A stretch of DNA of 64,000 nt from a virus (lineage: Duplodnaviria; Heunggongvirae; Uroviricota; Caudoviricetes). The stretch lies in IMG/VR virus record IMGVR_UViG_3300028805_000044; one strand, given 5' to 3'. The position numbers and the translations under genes were made by a program. Shown piece by piece: positions 1-64,000 of the stretch (its first letter is position 1; every line of letters begins with the position of its first letter). The notes below the pieces were generated by a model that saw only the letters and a list, made by a program, of their open reading frames with translations, ran no database searches and had not been told where the DNA came from.

Positions 1-3000
1 ACATAGGAATCTACTAGATATTTATAAGCTTCTTCTCCAGTAAGAATTTTTCCATCTGGAGTTTTAACGTCTTTCTGTGGAATAGTTCTCTTTAATTTTT
101 CATAATCTATATTAAATACTACATGACGTTTACCTTTACTTGTTACCTCATGTCTAGTTACAAACTCTACATATTCAGTAACTTGTCCATTAGAGTTATA
201 TGTAAACTTACCTTCAACCTTTTCAGATGGGCCATAATTCTTTACATAGAAGAATTTACCTTCCTCACTGTAAGCAAGATCATCTCTTATAATATCTCGT
301 CCTACTCTGAATAAAAGTCTGTGGTCCTTAGTAGTAGTATAAACTTCATTTAATACATTTCCATCTCTTACTTCTTTTCTATGCTTATCTTTCCAGAAAG
401 TATGTTTATAAGATACATCAGGCAACTCTCCATCTTCATCAGGTTGTGTAGATTCAAACTGTCTATCTAAAGAGATATAAGTATGTTTACCATTAGATTT
501 CATCATAACAAAATCATAGAAATCTGGAGACACACTTTGATGTACTTGTCTTATTTTCTTTGCTTTCTTTGGACCTTCTGCTATTACATCTGCCATAGAT
601 TCGTCCATTTCTATTCCAAATCTAGACTGATAAATATTAGACATTATAAGTTCAGCAGGAGTATTGTAAAGAGTAATATCTTTACTAGCATCAAGTTCAT
701 CAAGTAATTCTTGTGTGCTTGAATATTCCTTAACTCCTTGGGCTATAAGCCTTTCTATGTAAGCATTTACTCTTCCACGTTGTTCATCTGAAAGTCCTTT
801 AGACTTAGCAAACTTTCTTAAAAGATGTATAGAATTGAATATATTATTTACTCTATCTCCAGGCTTTCCATTTATTTTACCTTTATATTCCCACCATATC
901 TTAGTAGGAGCTAAGTTACGTGATTTATGTACATTCTTTCTAAATTGAAGAACTTTAACTGGTCTTTCTAACTTATCCTATATAAAGGCTCTAGGATCAG
1001 CCTTAAATAAATAATAATCAGATATTTTATCAAGAGCAACATCTATCCATTCTTGAGTATTATCAGCATTTTGGATAAGTATACCAACATTATCTGTAGG
1101 CATGAATTCTTCTGTATGTAAGTCCCAATCAGGAGTTTTTCCTGGCTCTTCAATTACTTTATACTTCCATTTAAGAGCATTATACTGGTCAGTTTTTTGC
1201 ATTAAATATGCTTCAACCACCTAATTATTCCATTCTTCAGAAGAAATCTAATATCCAGCAGCTAACTAATCTGCATCAAGCGTAGCTAGAGGCTTGAAAT
1301 ATTTATCTTCAGGATCTTCTTTTTCTTCAGCAGTTCTTTTCTTATAGTCTTTATAAGCATTAGTAGCTAATTTTACTAAATCCTTATATTGATATTGTTT
1401 ACCATCTATATCGTAGATCATCATAATATTATATCCGGGAGAAAGAACTGCTCCAAGTCCAGGATATTTCTTACGAATTGACTTATTTGTTATTATAGAA
1501 GCAAACGTTGAAAGTATATTACTGTAAATATTAGCATCACTAAATGGAATCTTTAAGTCATCCATAGCATGGGCATTGCTAAGACTAAATCTCTTTTTGA
1601 TTTGAGTAACAATAGATTCAGCAAGTCCTGCTTGTCCACGTGAAGTACTAATATTGTTTATAATAGTTCTACCAATAATATCATAAAGAGCATCTCTAGT
1701 TTCATCAGTAGGATTCTATTGATAAGCTTCAATACTTTCCATTTCAAGAGAAGCTTCTTCAAGAGCAATCTGTCCAAGAGCTTGATATATACCTTTTACA
1801 TAGTTATGAAGTCTACCACCGGCATCAAGTGCAGAAATAACCTGAGAGAACTCAGTCATTTCAGCCTCATCAGCTTCATGGTCAGCATCCATCTGGATAC
1901 CATAGTATTCAGTACCAAGAGTTATTGTATCAAGATCTTCATCATTTTCAAATCTTGAAGTTGAATTTCTATTACCTGCTCCATTTTTGATAGCACTATT
2001 ATTACATAGATAATCTATCATTAAGTATTTAAGAGGTTGTTCATAAGTGTTTTGATTAAACTCTCTCTTTGGAAGGGTTTTACCTTCTGCTTTTGCTTTC
2101 TCTTGAGCAGCAATAAATTCTGGGCTAAGAACTGTTACGTTATTAACTAAATTTGCTACTACATAGTTTGAAGCTTCTGAATATCTTAGTTTTCTATCAT
2201 TTCCTTCTCCAACAAGAGATTCACTATTAATACCTCCAAATACTTGATGTGCTTCGTAGATAGAGGACATAGTATGTAAAGTAGTATCTTGTTTTTGAGG
2301 AGTTAGATATATTCTATGATTACTCTAGGCATCGAAATAATGATACTTTCTTACTGATTTACTACCTATACCTTTATCATCTACTCTTATTTCGTCGGTA
2401 TAATATACAGCATTCTCTTCATCATATCCAAAGTCTACTATTTTATAATGTACTCCTTCTGGTCCTTTATAATATAGATCATTACCTCCAGATAAATCAG
2501 CAAGAGTAATTTCTCCACTTACTTTATGTGCAGCTATCTTTAATATACTACCTTTAAATGCCCAAGGCTTATTAGCCATTTTCTTGAACATATGTAACAT
2601 ACTAACTGTAGAACCTTGAGATTGTTGCATCATATTATTTGTCATTGTATGTGCAGCAAACTTAACAAGTGAAGAAGTCATATGTTGCTTATCATAGTAA
2701 TGCCATATAGGTTTCTTTACAGTTCCAACTTCATTTTCTTGAAGTGACCAGTTCTCTAAAATAGATGTTATAGGATTTATAAATGCAGCACCATCGTGAG
2801 AATCAACTGAACCTTCCTCTCCAGTAAAGTTGAATACAGGAGCAGGTATATCATCCATAACAGCAATACGCATTGTTGAAGCTATTCCTCTGAGACTACC
2901 CTGAGTGTAGTATCTCATAGTAGCAGGAATAATTACGTTACGTTTTAACTAAGCTCCTTGTCCTGCTGATTCCACTTCATACATGGCATCATCTATTGCT

Positions 3001-6000
3001 CTTTTTGCTTTACGCTTATTACTAGAATCAGGCATAGCCTCAATTACTTCATAAGCTTCTGTTAAACTCATAGTATTCCAGAAATCTTGTGCATCAATTC
3101 CTTTTGAAGTAGCTACAGTAGTTATAGCAGCAGCTAATTCCGGATCTTGGAATGATAATATACTAGACTTATTATCTGGATTAAGAGCCTTAGTAATAAC
3201 CATATTTGGCTTAATACCTCCAAGATGTTTGTTCTTATGGTTTATTTCTGAACCAGTAAGAGCCATACGTAAATTATTACCAATAAGACTATGTAATAAG
3301 AAGAATTTATTAAGAACTGGATTCAGTTCTAGAGTATCTCCTTCTTTTATAGCATCATGTGAAGTAATAGGTTCGTCATTAACTCTAGCAAGAATAAGAG
3401 TTCCATCAGAAGTAATCCAGCTACTAGGTCTTTCTCCGAAGTACCTAAGAGCTTGTACCCAAATGTTTTCTGGATCAGGTTCACCTTTTACAAAACGGAT
3501 TCCACTAACAATCATCTTATTCTTTAGAAGTTGATTTACAAATCTTCTTCTTTCTTTATTAAGACGTTCTCTTATATTAGATTTAGTATAAATTACAGTA
3601 GCATAATGTAACAGAGATTCATTAAATGCAAGACCTTTCTTCTTGTTCTTACCATCTTTAAACGCTCTGTTACCATTTATTCTAAAATGAGTATCTACTA
3701 GTATTTCACTCTTAAGACCTTTCTAGTTTTTAAGAGCCACTAAATCGTATTCATCCATAGTAGCTAGACGTCTATCTATCTGTCTAACCATCTATGTAAC
3801 TACATTCCAATTAGGCTCTAGAGCTAACCCTTCTGCATCTGCAGGATAAGCAAGCATAAACATATCTTGCATATCAAATAGTTGGGCATAGTCAGAAAGA
3901 ACGTTTCTTAATATTGTACGATAACTTTCACCAATTGTTCCTACATATAAGGTTTCAAGTTCTGAATCAGACATTAGGCTTATATCTTTTCCATTAAAGT
4001 TAAGTCCTATTTTATAGTTAACAAACTTAGTCTTATCAGAATATGTAGTAGGTTGAATTATCATGTATTTATTATTCTCATTCTATACTAAAGGAATTAA
4101 GAACTTATTTACCATAGCATGATAGAATAATTCTCCTTCTGTCATTCTTTTAACTTGCTTAGTTGTTCCATCAGCAAGTCTTACATCAGTATCAATAACA
4201 GTTCCTTTAATTGCTCCTAAGTTCTACATAAACAAGTTATGTCTTAAAGGTTGACTTTCAAAATTATCAACTTTATGTTGGGAATCTGAAAGGAGGGTGT
4301 GCAAGTCAGTTCCCATAAATGATAAACCATAGTTAGGAACACTATCGCCAGCTAAGTTTTTAGTGTTAGCTTTAGATATTTCTCCAGACATAATTTGTTT
4401 AATTATAACATAGTTATTAAGCCAGGTTTGAGACATTCCTATTGTGATAAGATCTGGACCAAGTACTGAAGGTTCCCAAATACTTCTCCAATCTCTATCA
4501 GTAGGATCCAATCCTAAAATACTGTCTTTATATATTTTAGAGTCTTCAATAAATTTCTCAATTTGACTTGAATTATACTGTCCATTATCAACAGCTTGTC
4601 TAAACTTATCGTGTATATCTCTAACTACAAGTCCTCTTATAGCAGTTGCTACAGCTTCTTTTGGAGAAGCAGCAAAGTTCTATTTAAATAACTCAAATTC
4701 AAGTAATCCGTCTTGTGTTGTGGTAAAACCAGTTCCAGAAAAGAAGTCTACGAATTCGAGAACGTTCATAAATGTAGCGCCTTTTTCACTTCTTGAATCT
4801 ATAAGTAATTGTCTCTTAGTCTTTGTACTTAGGTCTACACTTCCAAACAAACTTTCAAGTCCCATTTCTAAGGAACTATCCTTAGCTCTTACCTTAATTT
4901 CGATACCCTTATCATTAGCTCTTTTAGTGAGTATACCATAAGGATTTTCAGCTAAATCAATATCAACTTCGAGTATTGCTTTACCTAAATCTATAACATA
5001 ATGGCTAGGACTCTTAGAAATGATCTTATAGCCTAGTTCTACATTTTCCATGGTCTGATTATTGTTATTGATAGCTCTAACCATATCATAGAATTGCTTA
5101 TTTGTTTGGAACTTCTTCTTTACTTCAGTTACATACTAGCCAGCATTGTAATCATATACAGTTTGTAAGTAAGACATTTCAGTACTTGAAGCTATCTAAG
5201 CAGCAAGACTTTCCACAAGTGGATATCTATTGGTAAGTCCTTTTTGTCTGTTGTAAGAAGCTTCAATATTGAACAGAGAATTACTACCAGCAAATACATA
5301 TTCATATACTGCATCAAATACCTTCATTTCATAGGGATTGACTATTTTCTATTTAAGTAAAGCAGTACGTACTGAATCATACTTGTTTATAATAGTAAGT
5401 ATTTCTCTCATCTTATTCACTGGATCCTAATTAAATGTAGCCATAGCCTAGTATAATTCTAGAAGCTTTTCAGATCCACCTTGTAATTGAGATATATTAC
5501 CAAATAAGTTTGTAAATGCTCCAAGATAATTTACTGGAGTAAGATATGTATCATCGATAGGAATACTAGAAATAAGGAACTTAGAGAAATTACCCATTTC
5601 TTTTAAAGCATCACGAACATCTATTTGCCATCCATGAACTCTGTTTTCTGTATCCTTACCAAAACGATATTTATAATGAGGTTGTTTGTCTTCATCTATA
5701 TAAATAGGAAATTCTTGATCTTTGTCTGCAGAAATATAGTCACCTATAGCCTCTTTAGATAATTTATCAAAATAAACTATAGATAAATAAGCATTTATTG
5801 CTTCGAAAAGACTAGTACCTTGTCCTTCTCCATTTACATTAAGAGCCCAACCTTCTTCAACTTCATCTTCAAGAGTTCCTATTTTACTTTTCTAAATAAC
5901 TAGATTATAGAAACGGTCTAATGTATTTATGTAAGTTCCAATAGGTTTATTTTGTCTAAACATAGAGTTAGGTAGTCCCTTAGCAAATCCTAAAGCACTT

Positions 6001-6611
6001 AAATATCTATAAACAATAAGATATTGGTTAGCTAAGAACTTCTCTATGTTTTCGTTAAGAGATTTCTAATCATCAACAATAGCAGAATCTTTTAACGTTT
6101 GTCCAATTCTTACTACAGTTGTCAGTCCAAGTTCTCTAGCAAAGTGAGTTTTAAAGTACTCCTTAGCTGGAAGATTACCTGCAAAGAACTTGTCTAGTAC
6201 TTTACTTAGACGTTGTGAAGCTATTTCTTCACGACTTTGTAACTGTCCGTCTATAACAGCTGTTAAATCTACTTCCTCATCTCTAGTTATTTTTCCTTTT
6301 GGATAATAATGAGTTTTAATATTCTCAATGATTGTTTGAGAATCAGTACCTCCTCTTTTCAAGTCTAGAGATTTATTATTCTTCGCATTAGCATCTAATA
6401 GATCCTCTAGTTGTGAAGTCATCCTGTCTATAGACTATTTAAAGTCTTCAGGATTTACAGAGGATTCTTCAGATAAACTATAGTTAGGGACAGTACGATC
6501 AAAATTCTCGATTATTGCCTTAACCATATCACTGGCATTTTGGACCTCCAGTATTTCTACTGGAAGTCCTAATGCATCAAGTTTCCCAAAGTTTGGTAAT
6601 TTGCAACTCAT
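1..6611 (-). CDS. Giant virion-packaged RNA polymerase-like protein, 3'-truncated by the window edge (>2200 aa, TAG read as Gln)
   Basis: ATG at 6611 overlaps the upstream TGA (ATGA). Track fragments ending at 6066, 4680, 4224, 3792, 2949, 2325, 1716, 1266 and 978 share one frame and all end in TAG. The frame appears open to the window edge. Motifs DSHDGAAFINP, GTVKKPI, YGIQMDADH and KKYPGLGAV, the size and the position after the cargo genes fit crAss two-barrel RNAP. The catalytic DxDxD motif was not seen within the window. Confidence 0.65.
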
Positions 6612-9600
6612 TTATTACAATCAGTTTCATTTGTTTGATTGATAAATTCATCTATTACATTCTCTAATAGCTTTATATCATCTTCATCAAGTACTCCTTC
6701 TTCATCTAGAGTAGCTCTTAAGTCTTTCTTTAGTGCTACTAGATTATCTTTAGAATATTCTGTTCCGTCTTTTTCTTCCATCCATGCTTCAAGAGAGTCA
6801 CTTTCCTCATATTGAGAATGGGCTTTCATAATCTCACGGATCTTAGAATTAATTTCACTACCTTTATATACCGCAGGTACATTAGTTTCTTCTCCATCAT
6901 CTCTCTTGCCTGGAGCAGTCTTATCATTTAGAGTTACATTTTCTCCATCAAAGCGGACTTCTATTATCTTACCTGCAGCATCTGTATATTCTACAGCAGT
7001 TCCTTTTCCATCTGGAACTGTTTGTACTACATCTCCAAATTTATGTTCGTTAAGTAAGTCTCTAAGAGTTCTAACTCCATCTAAAGTAACCTCAACTATA
7101 ATATTATCAGGATCAACTTCTCCTTTAGAGAAAGCTCTTCTATTAAGCTCTTTTACATGTTCTTGTATGTAACCAAGGACTTCGTGTTCTTCATAACCAT
7201 CAAAGTTCCAAGAAGAGGTGTCTACTCCAAATCGAGTAAGTTCCTTAAGAATTGGATATTCTACCGTTTCTTCTTTCTTTTCTTCTACAACTATACCTTC
7301 TCCAACTTTATCAAAAGTAAATTGAAGAATAGGATTGCCTGGAATTACATCAGTCTTAAATAGACATCTATTAGTAGCACAAGGAGCTATCATATCACTT
7401 GCTGTACCTCCTGCCTTTATAAGTATTGGATCTATAAAGAATCCATATTTAAATAAGGCATCAGTAGCTACTTGCTGTCCATCTTCAAATTCGTTGTAAT
7501 TCTTTTCGAATGCAACTCCGTGGAAAATGAGATTAAAGAAATTGTCCATTCTACAATCTTGATATACAGTATCTCCAGAGTCTTCATATGTAAAATCATT
7601 TTGTCCTATAATATCAAGTCTTGTTTCAGATTCTTGTACTAGACCTCTTACTTCTTTTCCTCCAATAGTAGTAACAAGATGTTCGTCTAGTCTAGAATAA
7701 TCAAGATCAGTATGTTCTTTATCATTCATATCCATATAAATATGGAAGGAAGGACTTTTTTCTTTACCAAATCTTTCAAAGAATGACTCAGAACCAAAGT
7801 GCATTTTATAATGTAGGTTTTGAGCAATCTTAGCTAAGATAAGTGGAACAGCTTTTACTCTAACTTGGTCAGGAATAGGAATTGTATTCCCTTCATGGTC
7901 TATAAAAAGTTTCTTTTCCTTAGAATTGTTAACCCAATTCTCTGCTTCTTTATAATTGATTCTTTCATTCTTATTAAGTCCAGTAGTTTCGAAGATTCTA
8001 TCTATTACATTAGTAAATAGTTCTTCTATCATTTCACTGTACTGATAAGCTAAGTCTGGATTTATAAAGATTCCATTAATGCTATCTGGTGTATAAGTAC
8101 CATTAACAAATTTATCCTTATAGTAAGGATTATCTTCTTTAAGACCTACAATCTTTCTAATAACAGAACCTGTACGATTACTCCATCCAACTCTAAATCT
8201 TGGTATGTCAAGACCTTCATTAAATGCTATAAGTGCTTGTACACGTTTTACTTTATCTCTATCAAGTTCAGAATTAGTTTCCAACCAACGTTTATATTCA
8301 GCATTGGAAGGAGTTGGAAGTTTCTCAAGAGTTTCTCCAGTAGATTCTTCATATTCCTTTTTCTTGATTTCTTGAAGTTGATGATAAAGTTCTGCATCCT
8401 CTTTTGCCATCTAAATGAGTTGTTCTTGAGTGATACCATTATCTCTCTTGAAATCATTTAAGGCATTTATAAATTTATTAAGATCTGCTCTAAAGTTCCA
8501 TAAAGAAGCTAACATTCTAATACCCATAGGTCCTAAATCAAATGGGAATGTAAAGTCAGACTCCTTACGATTAGTAGTATAAATATCTTTAAATCCATTT
8601 CTATAAATAGAGTGGAATGATACTCCAGCATTATCAAGAACAATCATTCTTACTTGTGCTTTTGAAGGTGTTCCTGCAGCACGTAATCTCTATTGTTCTA
8701 GATAAAGATCACCAAGACGTTCAGGTGATAAAGTATTGTTATTAGATACAAATATTACTGCATGTCCAACAAGACTCGGATCAATTCCAGGAATCTCATC
8801 AGTAAGAACGTGTATTGGACTTACAACAGAATTACCTGTACGTGCATCCCATTCAGAAGTTCCATCCCACAGGCTTTCTAGACGTATTTTACGTCTTTCA
8901 TCAGCATCTGGGGCATCCCTTAGAGCTTTAATATCTTTTTTCTTTAATTTTATTAATTCTGTTCTACCGCTAAATTTAGGTTTATTTATTTGAATTTCCT
9001 AGCTTTCACTTTCTACAAGATTTTTTAACTAAGTTTCATAGTGTCTTGCTTGTGCTATTTGAGCGTCTTTTTCTTCACGAGATAATTCTGGATTGCTTTC
9101 GATTCCTTCTATCCATGTAGATGGATCGGCTACAGCACCAAGTGTAATAACAGCAGGACCTTTAGCTGTTTCTATTCTGGCTTGTATACTAATTACTTTG
9201 TCAGGTATAAAATCTTGTTTTTCATCATCAAGAGTAGTCTAACCTATAAGGTCATGTACCTCACTCTTGTCTTCTGAAACTAAGAAGAACTTAGCAGCTT
9301 TTAATTGTTCCTTAGTTACAACTCTTTGTAAATTAACAGGAATATCATATAAATCTATATTTAAATCATATAAGAATAAGCTCTTTAAGAAGTTAAGATC
9401 TCTTACAAGAGCTCTCTTTTCAGAACCATTATGTGCTAGAATACCATCACTTCCAGGAATAAAGAGACCTAGATCTCTTACTGGACCAGACTTAGGTATC
9501 CATCTTCTCTTACCATCAGATGTAATGTTACCTTTAAATTGTACATTACCATAAGCACGATATCCAACTCCTGGAGTTTCACTTGGAAGCTTTTCTACTT

Positions 9601-12600
9601 TTTCTACTTCGTCCTTCTTTTCTTCGGAAACATCTACAGGGGGAATATCTTCAAGAGCTGGTTCTTTCTTTTCTTCTTCCTTCTCTTCTTCTTCCTTCTT
9701 CTCTTCTACAGTTACTTCTTCTGGCTTAAGTTCTGCAAGTAATCCTTCTATATAGTTAAGTCTATTCTATATAAAGTCTTGAATTACCTCAGGAGTAAGT
9801 CTTTCATATTTAGTTGTGTAATCTTCCTTTACTGGGTTAATTATTTCTGAAATACCATTATCAAGAACTATACTACCTCTTCTACTTCTAGAAATCATAG
9901 TATATAAGTCTCTTAGTAATTCAGCAGCTTCTGATATATGTGTTTCATAAGCCTTTTTGTCTCCACTCTTAAGAAGTTTACCTCCCCAATCGGAGTCTAC
10001 AATTACATAATCAAACTCTCTTCCTTGAACGCTATCTTTATCAAAGATTTCAAAAGATGTAACGCCAGAACCAAGATGACTTTGTATAAAGTTTATTCTT
10101 TCTTTGTTATTACCTATATAAGCAACTGACCCAGATAATTTGCTAAGGTCTTCAGAACTTATAGAAGATGTTACTTTATCTCCTTCTAATTGCTTATCAT
10201 TCTCAAAGAAGCTAAGTCCTAATTTATTATGTAAAGCTTCAAGTACTTGTGCAAATATTTCTGAACTTGTTTCAGATGTAGAACCTCTCATCTTATCAAG
10301 TAAAGATACTATCTGTCTTTGATTAGAAACCTTCCATATACTTTCGTTTCTAAGAGAGAAATTAAGTCTTGGAGTTCTGAAAGCAAGTAAAGTTTCTCTT
10401 GCTAAGTTATAAGCTTTTCCTACTTCACTACCTTTACCTCTTTGATTTTCATCACCAAGTAAGGTAATTCTTGTTCCAGTAAGTCTAGCCCAATTTCCAA
10501 GAGCTTGCAATGTTAAGTTTCCAATATGAGTAGCTTCATCAATTACTAAGTGCTTTGGAGCATCCTTTATTACATAATCGGAATCCTTAATTCCTTTAAG
10601 TATTGTAGTAGTTTGCTTGTCAAGACCTCCATTAGATTTAGATTCTTTTATATCAGTACTTTCATCAAGTACTTTCTTAGCAAGTTCAGCAGGAAGAATC
10701 TATTTAAGTAGAGCATCTATTCCAAATGCTTTAGCTTTAGGAGCTAGTGCAGAAAGAGTTTCAACTTGCTTACTAGTAGGACCCGCTACCCAAGTATCTT
10801 CGTCCTCATTAATAAGGTATTTAGCTTCAACACTAGTTTTACCTGCACCTCCAAGTCCAGTAACAATTGTAGTATTATACATTACTGGCATTTTAAGACC
10901 TTTTCTTTCTGCAAGTTCTTGAAGTGCTTCAAGAGCAGCGTTAATAACTTTTGGATCGGCAGCAAGTGCTTGTCCAAGTTGCATTGCAGGTTGTTGTGTA
11001 GCTAAAGGAGCAATATCAGGATTAGCTTTTATAAAATCTCTTTCTAATTCTAATTGCTTTTGAGGATCTATACCAATTAAAGATACAAGATACATAAACT
11101 TATCATAAGCAGTAAGGTCTTTTAATTCTTCATCAACATTAGAAGTAACACCACTTATAACTTGTTCATCCTGATTAATATGTGCAAGTAATCTTTGCAT
11201 TATATCTTTAAGGTCTCTTCCTTCTGCTATAGCCTTCTATACATTATCATGGAACTGTTTTTCAAAATGGAATAAAGCATTAGGTCCATTAGGATCAACT
11301 ATACTATCCTCTAAGAATTCATTAGAAGTCATACTAGTGCTTAAGAACTTAAGCCTAGACTTACTAAGAGCTTCTTCTGCTCTCTATAGGCTAGCAGCAC
11401 TATTAGCCTGGTTTTGCATAGATAACTGAATCCATTGGTCTATTTCTCTAGTATAACCATTAAGTGCCATAATAAGCTGTCCACCTATCTTTTCGTCCAT
11501 TTCAAATAAAGGCTCAAATTTCTAGAAGAACTCGGAATCACCTTGTTTTCCTTTATGTGTTTCATAAAATTTATTTACGGCCTTGTTATAAGTCATTCCA
11601 TCTCCAATATTAGAAGGACGAGAAGAAGCAGCAACCATAGCAGTAACTATGTTTATAAGTTTCTTTGCTTCTTCTAAATATTTTATTTGGTCTCCAGATA
11701 ATATAAAGTCATGTGCTTTTTCATTTTCTCTGAACTATTTAAATATAGATTCAAGAGCTTTTTCAACTTCTACTGCCTCACTTCCAATCTTTGGAGCAAG
11801 TTCCTTAACGAGCTCTACAGCCGGATTTTCTTCTACAGAAAGTCTATCTTCTAAGTCTTTTGCTGCTCTTAAATCTTCATCACTTTTAAATAGTTCATTA
11901 AGTCTTTGAAGTTGAGGTTCAAGTCTTTCCATTTCTTGATTAACCATATCATCAAGCATTTGATTATAGGTCTCTTCATCCCAAGCTTCAAATTCTTCTG
12001 TTTCTAATGCGTCTAACTAATCCTTTAGTTCTCTTTGCTTTTCCTCATTATTTTCTACCATATATTGAGCATAAATATCTTCATACTATGCTACTTTCTA
12101 TATAACATCGAAGTCCTTATCTCCGGCAGCATCAGATAACATTTCACGTAGTTGTTCAGCAAGACTATAGCCCTCCCATCCTTCTCTATTTACTCCATGT
12201 AGTACTTCTTTTAGAGTAAACTTTCTATTAGGAGATAATTGAGAGAAAAAATATGTAAGACCACCATAGTCAGCAGTTCCAAAACGTTCAATAAATTGGT
12301 CTGCTATCTACTTACCATATCTTACTTTTAAGGACTCTCTTACTTTATTGACTAGTTCAGGATAGTTTTCTGCATTATCAAGTAAATCTTTATTTATACC
12401 TGTACCTATTGTACGTGCAATAAGTCTATTCTTAATTTGTTGCTATGTTTCTCCAAGATAAGCCATTAAATAACGCTTAGTACTTGGATCAATAAATGTT
12501 CCTGGTCTAACACTTCCAGTAGTTGGGTCAGTAGTTCCCCAAGCCTCTGCCTCATCAAGAAGTCTTTGTAGTTTTTGTATCTTATTACGAGCATTTATTT

Positions 12601-51700: not shown

Positions 51701-53445
51701 CCCTTTGTAATATTAGAGCTATATTGGGCAGTTTGTACTGCATATAATACTTTACCTGCTTGTATTTCTATTCCTGCAAGCAAGTTCTGATTTTCATCAT
51801 ATTTGCCAATACAAGCAACTACATCAGAAGAATCAACGTTAGAGTCTGTTCTGAATGTAAATGAAAGTGTCCATCCACTACCATCTAATAGATTTACTTC
51901 GTTAGCATTTTCAGAGAATAAAGGAAGCTCAAGATCTGTCCAAGATTTACCAGATAAGTGCATTCCTTGCATATCTGTTTGTTGCATAAATCCAGACAAG
52001 TTATGACCTTGCATATTTATATATCTCTATTGAATCACACCCTGACTACTATATGGGAATCGAGTATTTCTGTTATCATACATCCATTCGGTAATATTAC
52101 CAGTTGGAATACCCATAACAGGAGAGAAATAAGCAAATAAACTATTATTAAAGTTTGTGGCTGTTATGTATTTAGTTGCTGCTTCAGATAAAGTAAAATA
52201 TAACTCTTTAGTATCTTGAATAGCACTAGAGTCAACAGATATCGCATTAAGGGTTACCTTTACAAATTTATAAGAGTTATTATCAGTATCATATATAGTA
52301 TCGTCAGGAAGAGAAGAAGTATTAAATAGGAATTGTTGATTTACATCCTTAATAACCTTACTTATAGTTCCTGTTACTTGTCTTGAATCGTTCTCTATCA
52401 ACATTCCATTTTCAAAGTAGCATGGAGTTACAGTATAATATACATTATAATAAGAATATGCTACCCTAGAATATGTAAGTTGATAATTAAACTGTATACT
52501 GTTTCCATAGACAAACTTATTTAGTTTAGCTAAGTCTACATTATTAGTAGGCACAGTTTTATCTACTCCATATGTAAGAATATACAGAGTATTAGGTTGT
52601 ACGATAGTGCAACTAAAAGATACACTTTCAGAACGTAATAAATTATCATTAAGTACACCAACAGCATAAATCTCGAAAGTAAAAGTTTCACCAATAGATG
52701 TACTTTTTCTTTCATCTAGATAGTTTACGATAGAGTCTATTCTAAATTGAGATTCTTTTGCCTGTGGAATATCAAAGCTATCAATCTAATCACCATTACA
52801 TAATACAACTATATTAAGATCGCTATCAGTACTGTTTGAAGCTGTAATAACTACCGAACCAACTGGATTTTGTGGATATATAGTTGAATTTGGAACAGAT
52901 GTCTATGTAAGTTTGATTGCTCCTGCAATTACAGTAAGAGTAACTGGAGAAGCATAGTTCTATCCAGAGTTAGCATTTATAGTAAGTCTATTGGTAGAAC
53001 TTGTGAGATTGTTAATCTTTATTTCAGAACGAGTAAGAGAAGTAATTACATAACTTCCTTTTGTATTACCATTTTCGTCTTGAATTATTACATTAAAGTT
53101 CTTTTTAACACTACCTCCATTAATTGTTATATGTACGGTTACAGAAGTTCCAGAGGTATAGACTCTGTTACCTTCTTCTATATCTATAGTATAAGCAGTA
53201 GAGTCACCACCTCCACCACCTCCGCCTCCACCACCGCCTTTGGCTCCATTTTGATAGATCCAGGCGATGTTCTTTTCGGCTTGGAATATTCTATTATCTA
53301 ATTTGGTAAAGCCCTAATCTACTGATATTGACTCTCCATTCTCGTCTACATATCCGGGATTGGAGAGTTCAATATTAGCAGCATTGGAAGCTCCATCAAT
53401 AACCCATTGCTGAGTTCGCTCGTCCCAATGTTTTATTTTACTCAT
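45745..53445 (-). CDS. Giant multidomain protein, 2566 aa: Gly hinge, Ig-like/LamG region, CotH-kinase-like domain, leucine-rich repeats
   Basis: Fourteen track fragments are all in one frame and end in TAG. Starts at an ATGA overlap (53442-53445) and ends TAA 45745. Motifs: GAKG9 hinge, WTLSFTFRT (LamG-like), GIQGTSSLRYNSKNYEI, YTLKADVMDSSHVNN, GIYNFNLGR, DSMAKN, WYMCFYDMDTA, and repeated MFxGCxxL/LxxL units. Confidence 0.8.
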
Positions 53446-55049
53446 ATTACGATAAATGGTCTTGTACTTAATCTTGGTTGATTAGTTGTTATCATACTTT
53501 CAACTCTTCTTGATGTTCCATCAAATAAGAAGCAGTTTCCATCGTTAACCATAAGACCTCCCCAGTACCATCCTGAGTCAGAGCTATGATAATCGTTAAG
53601 ATTTCTAACCTATATAAGATCTGCAGGTTTACTTGGTAATAGAGGACATTTTAAACGTCCAAGAACGTTCTATATTCTAGCTATTTTTGTAAATGCACAT
53701 ATCCATTCAAGTGGAGTTCCTAAAGCCCATTGATGTTGAGTTCCTCCAGTACCAGGAGCATATTCATAACATAAATATGGAGCAGGAAAGAATGTAGGAG
53801 TACTTCCCTCTGATGTTCCCATTTGCCATACTGTATAATAGTCTCCATTTGTATTTACTTGAGGTTTTACACATCTACTTATAATATTTGGAATCAAGAA
53901 TTCATTAGCAGAACCAAAGAATTTATAAGGATTACCTCTATCATTTAAAAGATTTGGAGAAGGAGGTAAATCCTTAAGAAGTATCGGATTAGCAGTTACA
54001 TCATCACTAGCTGCTACCTGCATATATGGACAAGGAGAATAGTAATGTCTGCTATATTGATATTTATGGTCTGACTAATCTGAAGTAGCCTGTATTTGTA
54101 TTGTCTATGGAGCGTAATAACTACCTCTATAATAAGGGTTATTCATAGTCATTCCTCCAGGAAGTACATACGAAGGATCTCCGTCGTGACAACATTCTAC
54201 AAAAGGAGTATGTCCTTTCTAACTCCAATCATAAACTCCAAGTATATCATAAGTGCTTCTGAAATCAACAGCTTCTGTATAGCTCATATTACCTGAAGGC
54301 TTGTTAGTACTTACTAAATCAGGCATTTCTTCTTCTGTATCATATTGAATAGGTCCATCAAATTCTCCTCTATGGAATAATAGACCAGTATAAGGAATCT
54401 ATGAATAACATTCTATATTGTCTTCATGCCATAACATTTCTTCAAGCTTAGGAGCAAACATACACCACTCTTCATAATGGTCTTCACAACTCTTTACATG
54501 ACCATCAGTATTGTCATAAGCTAAGTTTTCTAAACCTATAAAATGGGCATGTTCATCAAACATTCCCTTAGGAATTACACAAACACCAAGAGCTAGGTCT
54601 GTTATATTTTCATCGTACTCTGCTGTATAAAGTTCTCCATTACTTCGTTCGTAAAGAACACACCCTACAGGTATGTCTGAGACGAAATCATTAGTCTTTG
54701 ATACAGCTTCTTGAGCATTAAATACACTATAATATCCTACAGTTTCGTGACTAGCAGTAAGCGTAGCTTGCTGGGGAATTACCCCAGCAGCTAACGTCTT
54801 TTTCTATGTTCCTTGTAAAACTACTTCAGTTATACTAGAATCTTTAAAAGCATCTTCTTTAATTTCTGTTATTGTATGTGGAATCGTTATTTTCTAAATA
54901 TCACAATTCTTAAAAGCCTCAGCTTTAATTGTATCTGTATCCATCACATACTATATCTTATGTTTCCCGTTTCCCTATAACGTAGCTCTTACTGGAGTAG
55001 TGAGATTATTTATTTCTACACCATCCACTAATATTTTAGTTACTGCCAT
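53442..55049 (-). CDS. Protein with N-terminal BspA-type LRRs, 535 aa (mostly missed by the track)
   Basis: Checked codon by codon from MAVTKILVDG (TAATG overlap) to TGA 53442. Contains TIKAEAFKNCDI[Q]KITIPHTITEIKEDAFKDSSITEV, typical LRR_5 repeats. Confidence 0.75.
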
Positions 55050-58000
55050 TAATTACTATTTAGTAAGGTTACTTGTTGTCCATTATTTCCTGTTAATTCT
55101 GCATTAACTACCGAGTATACACTATTACCTTCTTGGGGCTCAGCCCCACCACCAGGCTCTTCATTACCTCCAGAAGTAGCATAACTTAGCTCTACAATTA
55201 TATTGTTAGAAGGATTATTCTGTCCATTTCCAGGAACCTTTTCCAAGTCAGCAGCTGTATAAGGATTGTTGTAAGTATAAACCCATCCTACACTTGCATC
55301 CATAGATAAAGAAGTAGGTTTAGTCTTAAATACTCTTCCAAGAATTCTGTCTCTTTCAGTTGTAGAACCTGCTGGATTTGTAACTTCTGTTCCCTTACCA
55401 ACTCTCCATAATATATAGTGTGGATAGTTCTGGCCTCCATTCTTCTTTTCCGTAGCGAATCTATCAGTAGAAGCAGCAGTACCCTTAGCTGGGTAATAAG
55501 CTTCTAGCCAAGGAATATTAGCAGTAGGTAATTCCTTATTAGAAGTAGTCTTATAACCAGTAGCTTGTAAGGTTACATATTTAACATATGTTTGTTCATG
55601 TCCCTGTCCATCATATAAGTCTCCAAACTGTACAAGATGTGCTTTATCACCGCCCATAGAAGTGTACCAAGCAGGATATGTTATCTCTCCATTTTCTACA
55701 TGATAGTCTGGATCATATACGAAAGGTTTCATTCTATTATCAGGATTATCCCTCATAAGACGTGAACAGGTATAAGTATGCTTGTGTCCACCTATACAAA
55801 GTCTAAAGTTATTATCTTCTAGGAATTTACTGAACCAATAATTACCCACAGAATTTAAATGCGAACCACCTCTGCTATAAGCTACATTTTCGTTTAAGTC
55901 TCCATCCAAGTAGTTATATTTAACAGTATCTCCACTGGATGTTCCATAAATTTGTCCTCTAGTAAGAAGTGTAAATGGATTGTCATGTGTAAAAGCAACC
56001 TTCCATTTTATCTTGTTATCTATATGTTGTAAGTCATTTACACACCACTGTTTAATAATGCTATATATTCCTGTAGGACCTGTAGGATCTCCGTCAGCAC
56101 TATAGTTACTAGAAACTCCATACAAATCTTGTTGTGTAGTAAGAGTAAACTCTGAATTCATGCATAGGAAGTATACATCTCCATATATAAATGAATATAC
56201 AGAAGGAATATACTTATCATTACTATCAACAATAGGCATATCGTAAGGGAATTCAAAAGTAAAGAAAAAATTAATATTTTCAGGATTTACTTTATTAAGG
56301 TCTTCTCCAGTTCCCAGAACTTTTGGATCAGCAGAACACAAGTCATTGTTACCAATAGTGAACATTTGTTCTATATTTCTATAAAACCTAGATGCATCAC
56401 GATAAAAAGCTAACCATTCATTTAGACGATTGCCATTCTATGTCTGGTCACCTGTATTCATTTGCCATTCATAAGCAAGATCTGGATCGTTATCGCCATC
56501 ATTCTTTATAAAATCAGCAGTAATTCCCCAAGTTTTGTATTCTTCATCATGGAATCCCTATTGGTCTGTAGTTTGTACAAATTGGAAACCTCTTTCAATT
56601 ACCTTGTCTCGATTTCTCATAGTGAATTGGTACGTATCAGACCAATGCCCATCTCTACCAACTTTATAATTATATACCTAAGTATCTTCGGGTTCATCAA
56701 AATCGTGAATAAACTTGTGAACAGTATAGTCTTCACCAGAGGTAGCTACGTTTCTAATCCTATTATAAATAGGACTGTCCCAGTTACGACCATTACCAGA
56801 ACGACCATCGCCCTCTTTAAATGATTCATAAATATCTGCCTGGTCTTCTGAAGTACCAACTGGCCATATTTTAATAAATTCATCGTAGTATCCTTTAGAA
56901 ATCCAGTTGAAGCAACGAGTTCTATGAGCATTCCATCCAAATGAGCAGTTAACTACATTAGGACCTTCAACAAGCTTTGCCTTATTAAAGAATATACTCT
57001 TTCCTTCCTTAGAATTACATGGTTTATAATCATTTATATCTACTGAAGGATTAACATTTGCTAAATTGAAATAGGTCCACTATGCATTTGCACTATTATC
57101 TAGAGCAGATGGAGCTTTAAGAGCCTATTTAACTGGATCCATATTAAAATATCTAAATATTAAGCAATTATTAGGAGTAAGTCCAGTTCTTCTATTATTA
57201 AATGGAGACTTACAACATTCCATGCCTTCACCTATACCTATGAGATCGATAAAGTACTTAGCTACATTACCATCCTTAAATAGTTGTGTAGAAGTAAATG
57301 GATGTTCATCAAATGGAGTGGCAAGTCCAAGAGCATAATCGGCTTGTTCTGCATCCTCGAATCCTCCACTTAGATAAATAGAACAAGAATATCCCAATTT
57401 AAGAAGTCTATTTTCATCCCATACAGAATGAGCTGAAGTTTCATTTGTTGCTGCTACCTCAAGAACTTCTGGATTCTTAGTGTTAGCATAAGTCCATTCC
57501 ATATCGGGTTCTCCCACTCTTATCAAAGTTGTATTTGAATCATAAACTGAACAAGGAGCACATCTTATTAAGAATGTTCTACCTGCTGGGATATGACCTG
57601 TAAGAGGAAGAGTAATCCACTATCTACCATTTACAGCAACTTCTCCTTCAGAGTAGTGAAGATAAAGTCCATTAAGATTAAGATCCTAAGTAGAAATATT
57701 ACATAATTCTATAAAACTATGGGATACGGGATTATAACTATATTTATCAGAGTCTCCTCCACAATAAACCATGTTTATATAGACGAAAGGACTTTCTACT
57801 GAAGAATGTTCACTTAAAGGATAGTATAGAGGACTATACATACCTCCAGATAGGACTTTCTGAGAAGTTTTCAATACGCTGTGTGATTTATCTACTAATG
57901 TGAGATCACCATTCTTTACACCTAGAACATATAGATCATTGTTATTCATCATATCAACGAACTCTATACCAGTGATTCTCTTATAATTATTAATCGTTTC

Positions 58001-58948
58001 TTGTATAATTCCGTCCATGTCTGTTTCTATATCAATTGGTTCGTCGGAGCCTCCTCCGCTTGTAGCACCAATCTTTATTAATTGATAAGTTTTTGGATCT
58101 TTAATCCATAATGTCTAAGTATCATAGCACCATAGCAGTTCTCTTTCTTCAAAGTCATCTGCATGGTTTTTCATATAAATCTAAGTACCACTTTTTACTT
58201 TTAAGCAATAAGTATTTGGACAATGTTCTGCGTTTAGATATTCAGGTTCAGGAGCTTCATATACTTCAGTATGGGAATTCTCCTCCTAAGTTGCATTATC
58301 CTCTTCTTCAGAAGTTCCATAATTTGGCTCTTCTGAGGGTAAATCGTCTTGTGATGTAGACTTATTATGTGAGAAGTCTCCTGGATCTATCTCTGTCTAC
58401 ATATACATTAATCTATTTACTTTTTGCTATAAGATGTTAAGTACCTTAAGCATATTTTGAACAACATCAGACGAAGACTAATAACCTTCTTCAGATGTAT
58501 CAATCCATATTCCACCTTTATCATCCGGAGGAGTATCTTGAATGTAAATTTTTCTGAATGACTCCCAATATTCACCATTCCAAAAGCGTAGATCATCTAG
58601 ACTATCTATATAGACTATTTGACCTCTCATTTGTAAAGCAGTTTTTGTAGCCAATTCATCAAGGTCTTCCACAACCACGAGAGAAAGACCTCCTCCTCCA
58701 GAGCCTCCTTGTCCTTCCCAAAGTTCCCAAGCACCATTTCTATATATAAACATATGTGCATCATCGGCAACTTCTTTAACATAGCAGAGCATTCCATGTT
58801 TTAGTTTGTTAGTGGATAGGAAAGCATTCATTTCCTCGATGGTTTCTACCTGAATATAACCACCTCGTAAGTCATTTACATCAGCAATAGCAAATTTTTG
58901 ACCGTTCTTTGGTCTAAATTCTGATATAATTTCTAAAAATTCGCTCAT
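55049..58948 (-). CDS. Structural protein with lamin-tail-like and purple-acid-phosphatase-like (FN3 + calcineurin-like metallophosphoesterase) domains, 1299 aa
   Basis: Fragments 58478-58954, 57686-58018, 57125-57526 and 55049-56365 are in one frame. Lamin-tail-like LNGLYLHY...W..LPLTGHIPAGRTFLIR. Phosphoesterase motifs FVQTTDQ[Q]G, MNTGDQT[Q]NG, TIGNNDL, FTHDNP and IGGHKHTY occur in the canonical order. Confidence 0.8.
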
Positions 58949-58956
58949 AAACAATG

Positions 58957-58984: not shown

Positions 58985-59437
58985 TTAGTCTTCTTCAACA
59001 AATAATGTATAAAGAATTTCCAAGAAGTCGGCAGCGTTGAGTTTTTGTCCGTTAATTTCTACGTCATTACCTGCATTTAGCTCAAGGATTTCTGTATATT
59101 CATCCTCAGTTAGTTTAGTGTCGATAACAACTTCTTCTTGACCTCTTTTTAAAACAAACCCATTGTAATCCTCTTGAATTTGTCTATTCCAATCTTCAAC
59201 CTGCTTTGTTTCTTGTTCACTCTTATCTTTCTTTTGCACAATCTCAGAATAGCCCTCTGGAGTAAAACCCTTAATTGCTTCCTGTACATCTTCATCGAAC
59301 TCTTTTCTTACTTTTCCTAATTTAATACGCATTTGCATAACTTTAACTTTCAAGTCCTTAGAAAGTTCTTTTCCATCATTCTTTAGAAGGACTTTAGAGA
59401 TAAAATTCTGTTTTACTAGAGCCTCATTTGTTGTCAT
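58985..59437 (-). CDS. Hypothetical helical protein, 150 aa (possible tail-fibre assembly chaperone)
   Basis: Complete TAG-free ORF ending in TAA; the function is a positional guess only. Confidence 0.7.
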   Translation of the reverse strand: MTTNEALVKQNFISKVLLKNDGKELSKDLKVKVMQMRIKLGKVRKEFDEDVQEAIKGFTPEGYSEIVQKKDKSEQETKQVEDWNRQIQEDYNGFVLKRGQEEVVIDTKLTEDEYTEILELNAGNDVEINGQKLNAADFLEILYTLFVEED

Positions 59438-59439
59438 AA

Positions 59440-59724
59440 TCAGTCTTGTTCTAATTCATTAATTATTGCTGCAATTACACCGTCTAAGAAAGCTTCGACA
59501 GCGGTGAATTGCTGCTTTTTTATACCACTAATATTCTTATCTATAATTTCTCCAGCTCTTTGACTATAGCTATAAGTGCCTAAGTAAGAACCATCCACAT
59601 TCTGAAAACTACCATTCAAAGTGAAAGTATTCTATGTTTCATTAACACTTAGTTCACCTTGAAGTTTAAAGTCATTTCCTGTTTCTGTAACAGTGTACTG
59701 AGTACGTTTGTTTGTTAGTTCCAT
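59440..59724 (-). CDS. Hypothetical protein, 94 aa (missed by the track)
   Basis: MELTNKRTQYTVTETGNDF...NET[Q]NTF...INELEQD-TGA; one TAG at 59632; lies downstream of a promoter match. Confidence 0.7.
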
Positions 59725-59824: not shown

Positions 59825-60787
59825 TTAACTGGAAGATGGCTAAGGATACTACTAAATAGTACATGTAACTGGCTAAAATTGAGTTCCATCAGATAAAGTA
59901 ATAGTAACCTATGCATTCATAACAAAAATTGGTCTATTTCCAATTTGACTAGTAGGTTCAACATAAATTTCTTGGGAAGTTCCATATTTATATATAGTAT
60001 ATGTAAAGTTATCTTGTCCAGTATTATATCCAGGCCAATCTCCAATACCTACAGCTCCATCTCTAAGATAAATAGTAGCATAAGCTGAATAACCTGATGT
60101 ATAATTCATATAAACATATATTGTTCTTGGATAATAATTAGGGTAATTTACATATCCGCCTGCCCAATCTACAGTAAGAGTATCTAGTTCTGCTGTGTTC
60201 CATCTTATATCAGGTCTCTAATTAGTAGCTATATATGTTGTGTTAGCTTCCTAATATATAGGTATATCAGGCCCTTCAATGTAAATTCCTTTAACAGTTC
60301 CTGTAGGTTTACTATACCCTTTTAGTGTTCTAGAAGTTTTAGTGTTTCCTAAATCACTTCCAGAAACATAAGGACCATAAATATATGTAGAACCACCATA
60401 ATGCCAACTTACTTCATCTTCATAAGTACCATCAGAATAATACGTCCTTGTCTTATAATTCCACTTAACTTCCTATACACCACGACGCTAGCCTCCTGAA
60501 GCAGGAATATCTCCTCCATCACATTCATAATTAGTAGTAGCATATACCTAATAAATAGTTCCTGTACCAGTCTAAGTTCTAGACACAGTTACATCAGCAT
60601 CTCTAACAAGTTGATTACTATCATAAGTTCCGCTTATTGATACTGTACTGTTACCATTTGTTACATATCCAGGAATTGCACTTTTAGTGGGGCAGAGGTT
60701 AGGAGTAGAACTACTCGCAGTAGTTCCTACCCCAACAGCATCTGCTTTATTTTTTAAACTTGCTAATGTAAGTATTAAATCTGCCAT
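59825..60787 (-). CDS. Tail-fibre-associated beta-rich protein, 320 aa
   Basis: Fragments 60572-60787 and 59909-60109 join through 11 TAGs (checked) to TAA 59825. Thr/Tyr/Gly-rich, with motifs LCPTKSAI, YDSNQLV and DIPASGG. Confidence 0.65.
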
Positions 60788-60789: not shown

Positions 60790-63700
60790 TTATTTAGTTT
60801 CTAGGATTCGTATTCGTTCTTCTAATTCTCTTACTTTATTTTCTAATTGTCCTACGTAGAATGATAGTATTGAAGGATAATTAACTGTCATATTACCTTC
60901 TTCTCCATCTCTAAACATTTCTGGAACTTCTTGAGCAATTACTCCGTAATGCCATTTTTCAGTATCCCTTAATTGGAATTTACGGATATGCTCGGAGAAT
61001 GAAGAGATATTTTGTTTTTTAGCACGGTCTGAGGTTGTATAGAAATTAGCAGCATAGATATTATCATAATAAGGATTACAATAAATTCCACTAGTTCCAT
61101 ATATATGAGTACCGCTACCCCAAAGCATTTGATATGTTGAGTTACTATCATTATTATAATTTATTGTAACAGAACCTGCACTATCAGCATAACCTGCCTT
61201 TATTTTCTCCCAGTCAGTTGACATCCAACTACCTCCCCTATACCTAAGTATTCTAAGATATGTATCATCGTAATTGAGTTGCAACATATGTCCATATGCT
61301 CCAGCAGATTTACCTGCAATTATGGTTTTCTCTGATCCTGGGTTATTATATACTATTGCTCCAGAAGCAGAAGGCATAGTATCTGTAAACCAAGATTTAG
61401 CAGAATCTGCAGGAGCGTCATCTGTCATAGGAGATAGATAGAATCTTACAAGATCTGAAGCATGTAAACTATCTACCATATCTGAATTAGAAACGGTCTA
61501 GCTGCTTATATTAGAAGAGGTAATAAAGGTTCCCCAGCCTGTACTACTTCCACCTACAATTCTTCTAAAACGAAAATCATCAGAATTAAAACAAAAAGCT
61601 AAATCAACGTAGTAACCAGTACTATTTCCATGATTTAGTATAAGGTGTGAATACCAATCATCAGCAGGATTTTGAAAAACAGTTGGGTCAGTACCTACAT
61701 GGCCAGTATCTTGTGCAAATTGCAATCCTGTTATTCCATATTGTATCGTGTTGTAGCTATTAAGATATCTTACTGCTTGGGAAGCAATATTATATGCTGT
61801 TATAACCTCATACGCAGAACCATAGGATGTACCAGTATTTTGTTGTGAAGAAATGGCAAATCTTGGTTGACCATCACGCATAAAATGGAGCGCACACATA
61901 TAAGGAACATCTCCACCATTGTATCCATTAATCCAAAGAGTATCATGCCAAGTAGTTCCCATACCAATATCAGCATATCTTGTCATAGCAACTCTAAGTC
62001 CAATATTAGAGTTAAAATATGTTTGAGGATTTGGTTGGTCATCTCCTATATACAATGTTGGTAAATAATTTGCAGCGTTTACACTCATAGAACCTATATG
62101 TGCAACTCCTCCATCTGATGTTAAAGCATAAGCGGAAGAATTGGTTGGTGTTTGATAACCACCTGCATATAGTAATGTATTCCAGCCGTTTCTTCCATTT
62201 CCAAAATAATAAGCAGTTATATTTGCAGCACCTTCTCTGTTCTCATCTTGATAATTGAACCATACTGCACCACTAAACCCTGCAGATATGAAATTAAATT
62301 CGTTACCTGCAGTTAGTAGATTATTAGCTGTTCCTCGATGCGCAAACTGATAAGCATGTTCTCCGTCAACCATATCAGCATTTCCGGCAGAATCTGCATA
62401 TCCTGCATAAATTTTTTCCCAATCGGAAGACTACCATGTTTCACTTGCTTTACGTAAAATTCTTAAATATCTGTCAGAATATCCCATTTTAATAATTGTA
62501 CCATAACTATTATTAGTGTTCATTCCAATTAAATAAGAATACTCATCTCCATAAGAATTACATACAAATGAACGAGGATGGGATTGAGCATAAGAAATAG
62601 CCCAATTAATTGGACTATCTCCATATGTTGAATCCTAAGGAGATGCCACTCCTTCTGACCATAAATATTTATCAGGTTGAACTCCTATTTCAGTAAGTGT
62701 CCATGAAACATTTGCAGTGCCGTCAAAATATTTTCCAGTATTTCCGATTGTGAAAAGTCTTGCAGTTTGTAACTTGGTTGCTGTTGCCGCATTACCAGAT
62801 ATGGATATGCCCCACGTTCCACTTGCACCAGTACCATCTCCCATAGGAATACGTTTCCAATCACTCCAACCACCACCATTGCGCTGCCTTAATCCCATTA
62901 TATAAGTTGGGTCATCGTCTATCAATATCTGGAAGCCAAAATTTGTATTATCCCATCCACCATCAATGATAATTCCATTTGAACTGAGTATTGATGTATC
63001 AAAATCCGTAAACAGGTATGCGTTTAGTTGATTTGCCCAATGTGCCGCATCGAGAGCATCTGATGACTTTACAACTGGCTTATAGTTAAGACCAGCAGCA
63101 CTTGCACAAGAACCACTACTTGTTATATATCCGCTGTCGTTGGTAAATGATGACACATTTGTAGGCCTACCACTGACGTTAGTCCAAGCTACAGAACCCG
63201 CAGAGCTTGCGTAGTTTACTGACTGAGAAGCGATATTTCCACTTGTAATAACCCGACTACCATTTTCATAGAGTGTTGTGGCATTGGCAGAACCGTTGAC
63301 ATCAAGTTTGTAAGAAGGTGATGTCGTGCCAATACCGACATTGCCTGTTTTTATGAAGATGTTTCCATCTGCATCCCAGTCATAAGGATACTCGTATTCG
63401 CTACCGAGTCCTTGGTCACCCCATCTTGAGGTAAGCAGTTTTATAGACGTAATAGAGGTAGCACCTGTGGTGTCTTGCGGGTCTTTCGTTATTGTAAGAC
63501 GAAGATAATTTGCGTCTGTGGAAAGTTGACTTGGAATTGAAATCCATATTGGAGCAGCGTTGATTTCTGGACGGAAACTCGACGAGTGTAACACAGTCCA
63601 CGTACTTCCATCAGAAGATTTCTCTATGACGATTGTAATATGTGCCTGCGTTGCTTGGTAAGCAAGACCTAAAACCATCCATCTTGACATTGTATACCGA

Positions 63701-64000
63701 ATACCACTACTCCATACCCAGCGAGAACCTGTCACGCCTGTTGGATTTATAATACTTATTTTAACTGCTTCTTTCTGCGCAAAAACACGCTTGTCTAAAG
63801 TCGCAGCAGTCCAATTTACATTGTCGGTTGTTGTATAATATGCTGGGGTTGATGCTCTGCAAAAAGCAAAAACGTCATGCCACAAATACTTTGGTATTGG
63901 AGATTGAAAAAGAGAGGTTGGGTTTGCAGCAATAACGGTACTATTACTTACTGAATAAGTAATTCCGTTAGCATTCTCCAAAATGCCGCCAGACAATGGT
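60790..64000 (-). CDS. Tail fibre / receptor-binding protein with C-terminal S74 intramolecular chaperone, 5'-truncated (>1069 aa)
   Basis: Three fragments in one frame joined by three TAGs. Fibre motifs GNVGIGTTSPSYKLDVNG, WGISISGNAATATKLQTAR and YFDGTANVSW. C-terminal TSDRAKKQNI...GVIAQEV followed by a coiled coil. Confidence 0.85.

Follow-up and report, generated by a model that had tools for sequence, protein, structure and literature searches.

The 64,000-nt stretch of DNA analysed here, called the window throughout, comprises bases 63834-127833, reverse strand, of the IMG/VR virus record IMGVR_UViG_3300028805_000044. The whole record is 192,624 bp long, has a G+C content of 33.8% and is 100% complete according to CheckV. 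The window is the late gene block of a crAss-like gut phage and encodes virion, tail, cargo and lysis proteins. Judging from gene structure, homologous proteins and DNA-level comparison with relatives, TAG in this block is almost certainly a sense codon that specifies glutamine (Gln).

Reading TAG as sense has a strong effect on the apparent gene content. With the standard code (translation table 11), open reading frames (ORFs) of at least 100 aa cover 53.3% of the window, and this rises to 88.5% when TAG is read through, compared with 58 and 72% in the controls in which TGA or TAA, respectively, were read through. At the same time the longest ORF in the window lengthens from 600 to 2991 aa. 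Curation gave 29 genes, which all lie on the minus strand of the window and occupy 99.1% of it. The 21,177 codons of these genes include 224 in-frame TAG, which amount to 23.5% of the Gln codons in the window, and not a single internal TAA or TGA. The genes that terminate within the window do so at TAA (16 genes) or TGA (12 genes) and never at TAG. As off-frame TAA and TGA together make up about 8% of codons, such uninterrupted frames would be impossible by chance. The genes mostly follow each other with overlaps of 1-8 nt of the ATGA or TAATG type, and the sole apparent gap in the tiling is closed by a 59-aa ORF at 33142-33321. In addition, Pfam domains of the GH108, DUF192, Metallophos and crAss_MUZ families run across TAG sites. 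Annotation under table 11 therefore loses about half of the window and breaks up giant virion proteins, the largest of which has 3292 aa.

The meaning of the codon was deduced from homologous sequences. All homology queries carried TAG as X, so as not to argue in a circle, and the residue profile of the TAG columns was scored against substitution profiles that were derived empirically for every amino acid from the same alignments. Across 79 IMG/VR loci around the capsid gene, the residues opposite the window TAG were Gln in 484 of 1474 cases, Glu in 144 and Lys in 141, and 140 further positions were TAG themselves; in likelihood Gln was ahead of Glu by 948 nats. Six relatives, four complete genomes and two GenBank records, were compared over their whole length, and the maximum-likelihood residue at TAG was Gln in each of them. 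Two of the six, G003 and MT835470, use the standard code (ORF coverage with table 11 of 85 and 93%, respectively) and give Gln margins of 45 and 17 nats, while the remaining four are TAG-recoded. At the DNA level, conserved TAG sites correspond to CAA or CAG in G003 and, in G001, which is recoded, to TAG or CAA. In high-scoring segment pairs of 80-95% protein identity, the window TAG was found opposite TAG 30 times, CAA/CAG 16 times and other codons four times. In the reverse direction, TAG codons of the relatives faced CAA/CAG of the window in 36 cases, TAG in 30 and other codons in 10.

Several TAG sites fall on invariant positions of protein families. Site 105 of the GH108 endolysin is Gln in 120 of 120 homologues, entries from Prevotella and Dysgonomonas included, and at site 79 of the same protein Gln is the top residue (45 of 120). 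Sites 75 and 134 of the DUF192 protein and sites 610, 799 and 839 of the metallophosphatase protein are likewise Gln in all 120 homologues, and Gln is the top residue at 9 of the 13 TAG sites of the latter. The first-pass annotation, made from the letters of the window and a list of its ORFs, had proposed that TAG stands for Gln, that the genes end solely in TAA or TGA and abut or overlap the next one, and that coding density should favour the read-through; the homologue columns, the curated gene set and the ORF coverage given above agree with it in each respect. Its three examples of TAG in context are exact (PAQQ[TAG]EQ at 35713-35715, PTQ[TAG]EPP at 40221-40223 and EQQ[TAG]EPEP at 33211-33213), and its placement of TAG at Gln-tolerant or conserved positions of the GH108, DUF192 and phosphoesterase families is confirmed by the six invariant sites.

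The recoding is confined to a part of the genome. The main recoded late block spans 42-138 kb of the genome and contains the whole window. Read-through of TAG lifts the ORF coverage at approximately 27-138 kb and hardly at all in the minus-strand block at 138-192 kb. The early block was taken as 138-192 kb plus 0-27 kb, approximately 23,000 codons, the limits of the blocks having been set by hand according to ORF coverage and where TAG occurs. In the early ORFs longer than 100 aa, in-frame TAG is restricted to the first ~27 codons, before the likely start, or to the last ~25. Internal TAG is otherwise seen in this block in short, doubtful ORFs only, mostly in the tRNA region at 0-27 kb. At the late-block rate about 250 TAG would be expected in the early codons; the number observed inside substantive ORFs is zero. 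Furthermore, 13 early-block ORFs called with table 11 end in TAG, and in three early genes (genome 161553-161945, 180870-181193 and 182757-183263) the TAG lies exactly where the orthologues have their TAA or TGA stop. In the early genes TAG is still a stop. Since the early block has no internal TAG and some of its genes end in TAG, the genome is dual-coded. The window-wide recoding proposed in the first-pass annotation is supported; it is not a property of the whole genome, in which early genes keep the TAG stop. Annotation of this genome must apply TAG as Gln to the late block alone. Outside the main late block there are two TAG-rich minus-strand ORFs, at genome 40163-41449 (31 TAG in 428 codons, 7.2%) and 29428-30939 (18 in 503 codons), and neither has a Pfam match.

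No tRNA was found in the window, as the first-pass annotation had stated. The rest of the genome does contain a tRNA(CUA) gene, detected by ARAGORN at genome 35700-35789 (L087:15700-15789), approximately 28 kb outside the window. It is 90 nt long, lies on the plus strand of the genome, which is the late-gene strand, and scores 42.3 bits against the Rfam tRNA model (gathering score 29). Orthologues are present in the TAG-recoded relatives G001 and G005, whereas ARAGORN found no CUA tRNA in the standard-code G003. These orthologues came from running ARAGORN on the fetched genomes; BLAST with the suppressor sequence against five relatives had returned none. The U1-A72 pair and the anticodon loop CUCUAAA are invariant in the orthologues, and compensatory changes are seen at five of the seven pairs of the acceptor stem. 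Of 114 tRNAs, five contain the D-arm 12-mer TGGTGTAATGGT, namely the suppressors of G001 and G005, their tRNA-Gln(UUG) and one tRNA-Met, and both U1 and this 12-mer are common to the tRNA(CUA) family and phage tRNA-Gln(UUG). In Escherichia coli, glutaminyl-tRNA synthetase (GlnRS) recognizes tRNA-Gln by a weak 1-72 pair, G2-C71, G3-C70, G10, U35, G36 and G73. The phage tRNA(CUA) has the weak 1-72 pair (U1-A72), G3-C70, G10 and U35. ARAGORN labels the molecule a pyrrolysine tRNA from its anticodon only; this candidate was rejected, the tRNA having a 22-nt variable arm and not the very short variable loop and compact D loop of tRNA-Pyl. The genome displays these marks of translation code 15: in-frame TAG with a gain in coding density, Gln in homologues at TAG, an available cognate tRNA(CUA) and an early/replication block compatible with the standard code.

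The variable arm of the suppressor has an unusual loop. The variable region, 22 nt long, folds into a 5-bp stem that closes a 7-nt loop, UUCUGAG (CUCUGAA in G001 and G005), and the arm resembles the anticodon arm of tRNA-Gln(CUG). A pattern scan of IMG/VR, in which the CUA anticodon loop and the T arm were fixed and the variable arm was left free, yielded 22 distinct long-arm tRNA(CUA). With the one described here included, the apex of the variable arm reads CUGA in 21 of 23 and UUGA in one; the stems differ among genomes and the loop is kept. In a control set of 41 other long-arm tRNAs, CUGA was found in no variable-arm loop, most of these being GNRA or UUCG-type tetraloops, and a single control tRNA-Leu had CTGA elsewhere in the arm. 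A literature search found no paper describing a variable-arm CUG loop of a suppressor tRNA. It is possible, although we hold it only tentatively and consider it not the likelier case, that the suppressor is 'two-headed', the variable arm perhaps allowing a host GlnRS that reads the anticodon to charge a CUA tRNA with Gln. The Gln-like loop makes the question of how the CUA tRNA is charged a testable one.

Other tRNA genes of these phages are also peculiar. The genome has approximately 24 tRNA genes and a transfer-messenger RNA (tmRNA) at 2-20 kb (genome 2283-20294, L086). The tmRNA lies inside the tRNA array on the minus strand (genome 4441-4839, L086; Rfam RF00023, 62.7 bits, gathering score 47). 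An odd tRNA with the anticodon loop CGCCAAA (genome 9374-9446, minus strand) is identical at 61 of 74 positions to a second tRNA(CUA) of G001 (7229-7302) and may represent a former or alternative suppressor lineage. Long variable arms are found on isotypes that normally have short loops, in this genome on the tRNAs for Gln (91 nt), Glu (88 nt), Lys (86 nt) and Arg (86 nt), and in G003 on those for Thr, His, Lys, Cys and Trp. One tRNA of G001, called Val(GAC) by ARAGORN, has the variable-arm loop CUUUUAA, which resembles a Lys anticodon loop.

From these observations a scheme of expression can be proposed. The phage tRNA(CUA), whose gene is present, would decode TAG in the late genes. Domain searches of the genome gave no match to release factors (PF00472, PF03462), to the GlnRS/GluRS catalytic domain (PF00749), to GatA (PF01425) or to GatB (PF02934); a release factor and a synthetase of this type, which the first-pass annotation had suggested looking for in the rest of the genome alongside the tRNA, are not among its recognizable genes. 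As the phage has no gene for GlnRS or GatA/GatB, the host GlnRS presumably charges the tRNA(CUA). In the control panel the GatA and GatB families had no match in Bacteroides thetaiotaomicron, so a Bacteroidales host would make Gln-tRNA directly by GlnRS. The early genes would be readable under the standard code of the uninfected host, and the late genes, with up to 34 TAG each, would be completed only after the suppressor tRNA has built up. Dependence on the tRNA would in this way gate late expression, the late genes being unreadable in its absence.

Could the TAG codons instead be true stops, the genes being fragmented, decayed or mis-assembled, or expressed by rare, context-dependent read-through? 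Table 11 does give many short fragments in the same frame, as such a situation would, but the frames are broken by TAG only and never by TAA or TGA, homology and Pfam domains extend past the TAG sites, and recoded relatives share TAG positions with the window and have TAG at further Gln positions. The dedicated and conserved tRNA(CUA) also speaks against true stops. An A follows 49% of the in-frame TAG and 26% of the CAA/CAG codons, which was considered as a suppression context and rejected: off-frame TAG has the same bias (44-51%), so that the base after in-frame TAG is no more biased than after off-frame TAG, and the bias is weak in relatives, which leaves no special read-through context. 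The probability of true stops appears practically negligible. Reassignment throughout the genome, or in the host too, with the TAG at the ends of early genes also being Gln, is very unlikely. It could draw on the fact that reading through an early TAG adds just 3-30 codons before a TAA or TGA, and that one such tail is similar in G001; against it stand the approximately 23,000 early codons free of TAG inside substantive ORFs and the three early genes in which TAG takes the place of the orthologues' stop.

That TAG is sense but specifies another amino acid (Glu, Lys, Tyr, Ala, Leu or pyrrolysine) we regard as extremely unlikely. Such a reading gains something from the suppressor itself, which has A73 and, as is usual in class II tRNAs (Leu, Ser, Tyr), a long variable arm, has tRNA-Tyr as its best typed whole-sequence match and was labelled 'Pyl' by ARAGORN, and also from Glu and Lys, the next commonest residues at TAG columns. 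However, long arms occur on the Gln, Glu, Lys and Arg tRNAs of this genome as well, and the arm is therefore uninformative about identity. In the six whole-genome comparisons Gln is ahead of every other residue, in the 79 loci it leads Ala by 1830 and Tyr by 2743 nats, six TAG sites are Gln in all of their 120 homologues, and TAG swaps with CAA/CAG in close relatives.

Gln as the meaning of TAG in the late block is preferred, and a number of points weigh against it or against the proposed scheme. TAG columns are somewhat less often Gln than CAA/CAG columns are (21 vs. 27% in G003 and 15 vs. 29% in MT835470). The database homologues may in part have been translated with TAG as Q themselves, for which reason the DNA-level tallies, free of this problem, were given more weight. 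The tRNA(CUA) has A73, G2-U71 and A36 where E. coli tRNA-Gln has G73, G2-C71 and G36; A36 is unavoidable in any amber suppressor, and the phage's own tRNA-Gln(UUG) likewise has A73 and G2-U71. By whole-sequence similarity the nearest typed tRNA is Tyr, with Gln next. The scores for Tyr, Leu and Gln are alike, so similarity does not settle the identity and the amino acid was assigned from the protein columns. Completing a gene with 34 TAG needs near-complete suppression in competition with host release factor 1, and no phage factor that would explain it was found. Finally, the support for Gln in this genome comes from sequence, and the host, its GlnRS as the charging enzyme and the time at which the tRNA is expressed are inferred.

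The genes of the window are the following (window coordinates; TAG counts are in-frame).
3-6611, minus strand: giant virion-block protein without Pfam or PHROG match, first 2203 of 3292 codons (genome 121223-131101); 20 TAG in the window
6608-15583, minus strand: 2991-aa protein with a P-loop AAA_30 domain; 27 TAG, stop TGA, overlaps the next gene by 4 nt
15580-17475, minus strand: 631-aa protein; 6 TAG
17472-21536, minus strand: 1354-aa protein; 21 TAG
21591-21914, minus strand: 107-aa protein; no TAG, 18 CAA/CAG
22003-22596, minus strand: DUF192 protein; 4 TAG
22568-24130, minus strand: 520-aa protein; 8 TAG
24123-28802, minus strand: homologue of the crAss muzzle protein, 1559 aa; 23 TAG, which make up 42% of its Gln codons
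28784-32125, minus strand: 1113-aa protein; 10 TAG, site 46 being Gln in 47 relatives and TAG in 7
32106-32699, minus strand: 197-aa protein; 4 TAG
32699-33145, minus strand: 148-aa protein; 2 TAG
33142-33321, minus strand: 59-aa Glu/Gln/Pro-rich ORF; 2 TAG, one at 33211
33321-34013, minus strand: 230-aa protein with a weak match to crAss tail ring protein 1; 1 TAG, site 204 being Gln in 50 relatives
34013-34693, minus strand: 226-aa protein; 4 TAG, site 31 being Gln in 48 relatives and TAG in 10
34754-35665, minus strand: capsid-cluster protein, 303 aa; no TAG
35683-36831, minus strand: capsid-cluster protein, 382 aa; 1 TAG close to the C-terminus (35713)
36852-37703, minus strand: capsid-cluster protein, 283 aa; no TAG
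37781-39202, minus strand: Crassvirus major capsid protein, 473 aa; no TAG
39228-40322, minus strand: 364-aa protein; 2 TAG, one at 40221
40439-40960, minus strand: endolysin with GH108 and PG_binding_3 domains, 173 aa; 3 TAG
40948-41253, minus strand: 101-aa protein; no TAG
41250-45752, minus strand: 1500-aa protein with a tail-fibre PHROG match; 26 TAG, sites 431, 456, 540 and 738 being Gln or TAG in all relatives
45745-53445, minus strand: protein with leucine-rich repeats (LRR), 2566 aa; 22 TAG
53442-55049, minus strand: BspA-type LRR protein, 535 aa; 10 TAG
55049-58954, minus strand: 1301-aa protein with a calcineurin-like phosphoesterase domain; 13 TAG
58985-59437, minus strand: 150-aa protein; no TAG
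59440-59724, minus strand: 94-aa protein; 1 TAG
59825-60787, minus strand: 320-aa protein; 11 TAG vs. 5 CAA/CAG (69%), the strongest TAG preference in the window
60790-63999, minus strand: 2779-aa protein (genome 58705-67044), of which the window covers the last 1069 codons; 3 TAG in this part

The probable start of the DUF192 gene is the ATG at 22575 (MINISIG...), in agreement with its closest homologues, rather than the TTG that lies upstream at 22596; its overlap with the preceding gene then shrinks from 29 to 8 nt. TAG is unevenly distributed among the genes. The four genes of the capsid cluster (34754-39202), that of the major capsid protein included, have one TAG among 61 Gln codons, the other 60 being CAA or CAG (binomial p = 2.5e-6), and this scarcity indicates that the most abundant virion proteins avoid the recoded codon.

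Putative functions could be assigned to a few of the window proteins. Pfam named the Crassvirus major capsid protein, the crAss muzzle protein, the GH108 and PG_binding_3 endolysin, DUF192, the calcineurin-like phosphoesterase, LRR and P-loop proteins. The matches to Crass_capsid (38.2 bits, cut-off 27) and crAss_MUZ (106 bits) provide the Crassvirus major capsid and muzzle proteins by which membership in Crassvirales was judged; the match to CrAss_Ring_1 is weak (19.2 bits, under the cut-off of 27). A scan of 18 window proteins against PHROGs named almost nothing, the 1500-aa protein alone having a tail-fibre match, and megablast against GenBank phages returned two distant records and no others. 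Outside the window, the phage encodes a P-type cation-transporting ATPase of 883 aa (E1-E2_ATPase, E = 5.8e-41; genome 21692-24343, minus strand, L087:1692-4343).

Judging from its size and general features, the genome may belong to the Zeta group of crAss-like phages (Yutin 2021, PMC7886860). At 192.6 kb the genome is at the top of the 145-192 kb range stated for this group, and it shares with the group the many tRNAs, code switching among near relatives, relatives with split major capsid protein genes and a major capsid protein without recoded stops (PMC7886860). In several IMG/VR relatives (L051-L053, L062, L071, L074 and others) the major capsid gene is matched only in parts, for example residues 181-473, or spread over approximately 2 kb, which suggests introns or other insertions like those of the Zeta group (PMC7886860).

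The first-pass annotation had remarked that amber recoding is already described in crAss-like phages, and this is correct: recoding of TAG to Gln in late genes has been published (Yutin 2021, PMC7886860; Borges 2021, 10.1101/2021.08.26.457843), and Peters (2022, PMC9523058) reports metaproteomic evidence that TAG is translated as Gln in crAss-like phages. Dual-coded phage genomes of the Mgcod type (10.1101/2022.06.29.495998) likewise have blocks with different codes, whereas the blocks here were drawn by hand. Similarly to the published code-15 crAss-like phages, the genome described here has in-frame TAG limited to a structural and lysis block, a replication block in the standard code, its own tRNA(CUA), TAG as Gln and close relatives that use the standard code. 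Nothing essential differs from them; no 'code change module' of release factor 2 or an aminoacyl-tRNA synthetase was found here, and the capsid genes avoid TAG (one of 61 Gln codons). The supE suppressor of E. coli is a tRNA-Gln(CUA) that inserts Gln at amber codons. The phage tRNA resembles it in having a CUA anticodon that presumably inserts Gln, U1-A72, G3-C70 and G10, and differs in its length of 90 nt, the 5-bp variable arm with the 7-nt loop UUCUGAG, A73 and G2-U71. The recoding is thus another case of a known phenomenon and involves no new principle; it adds one more clear phage in which two codes separate early from late expression.

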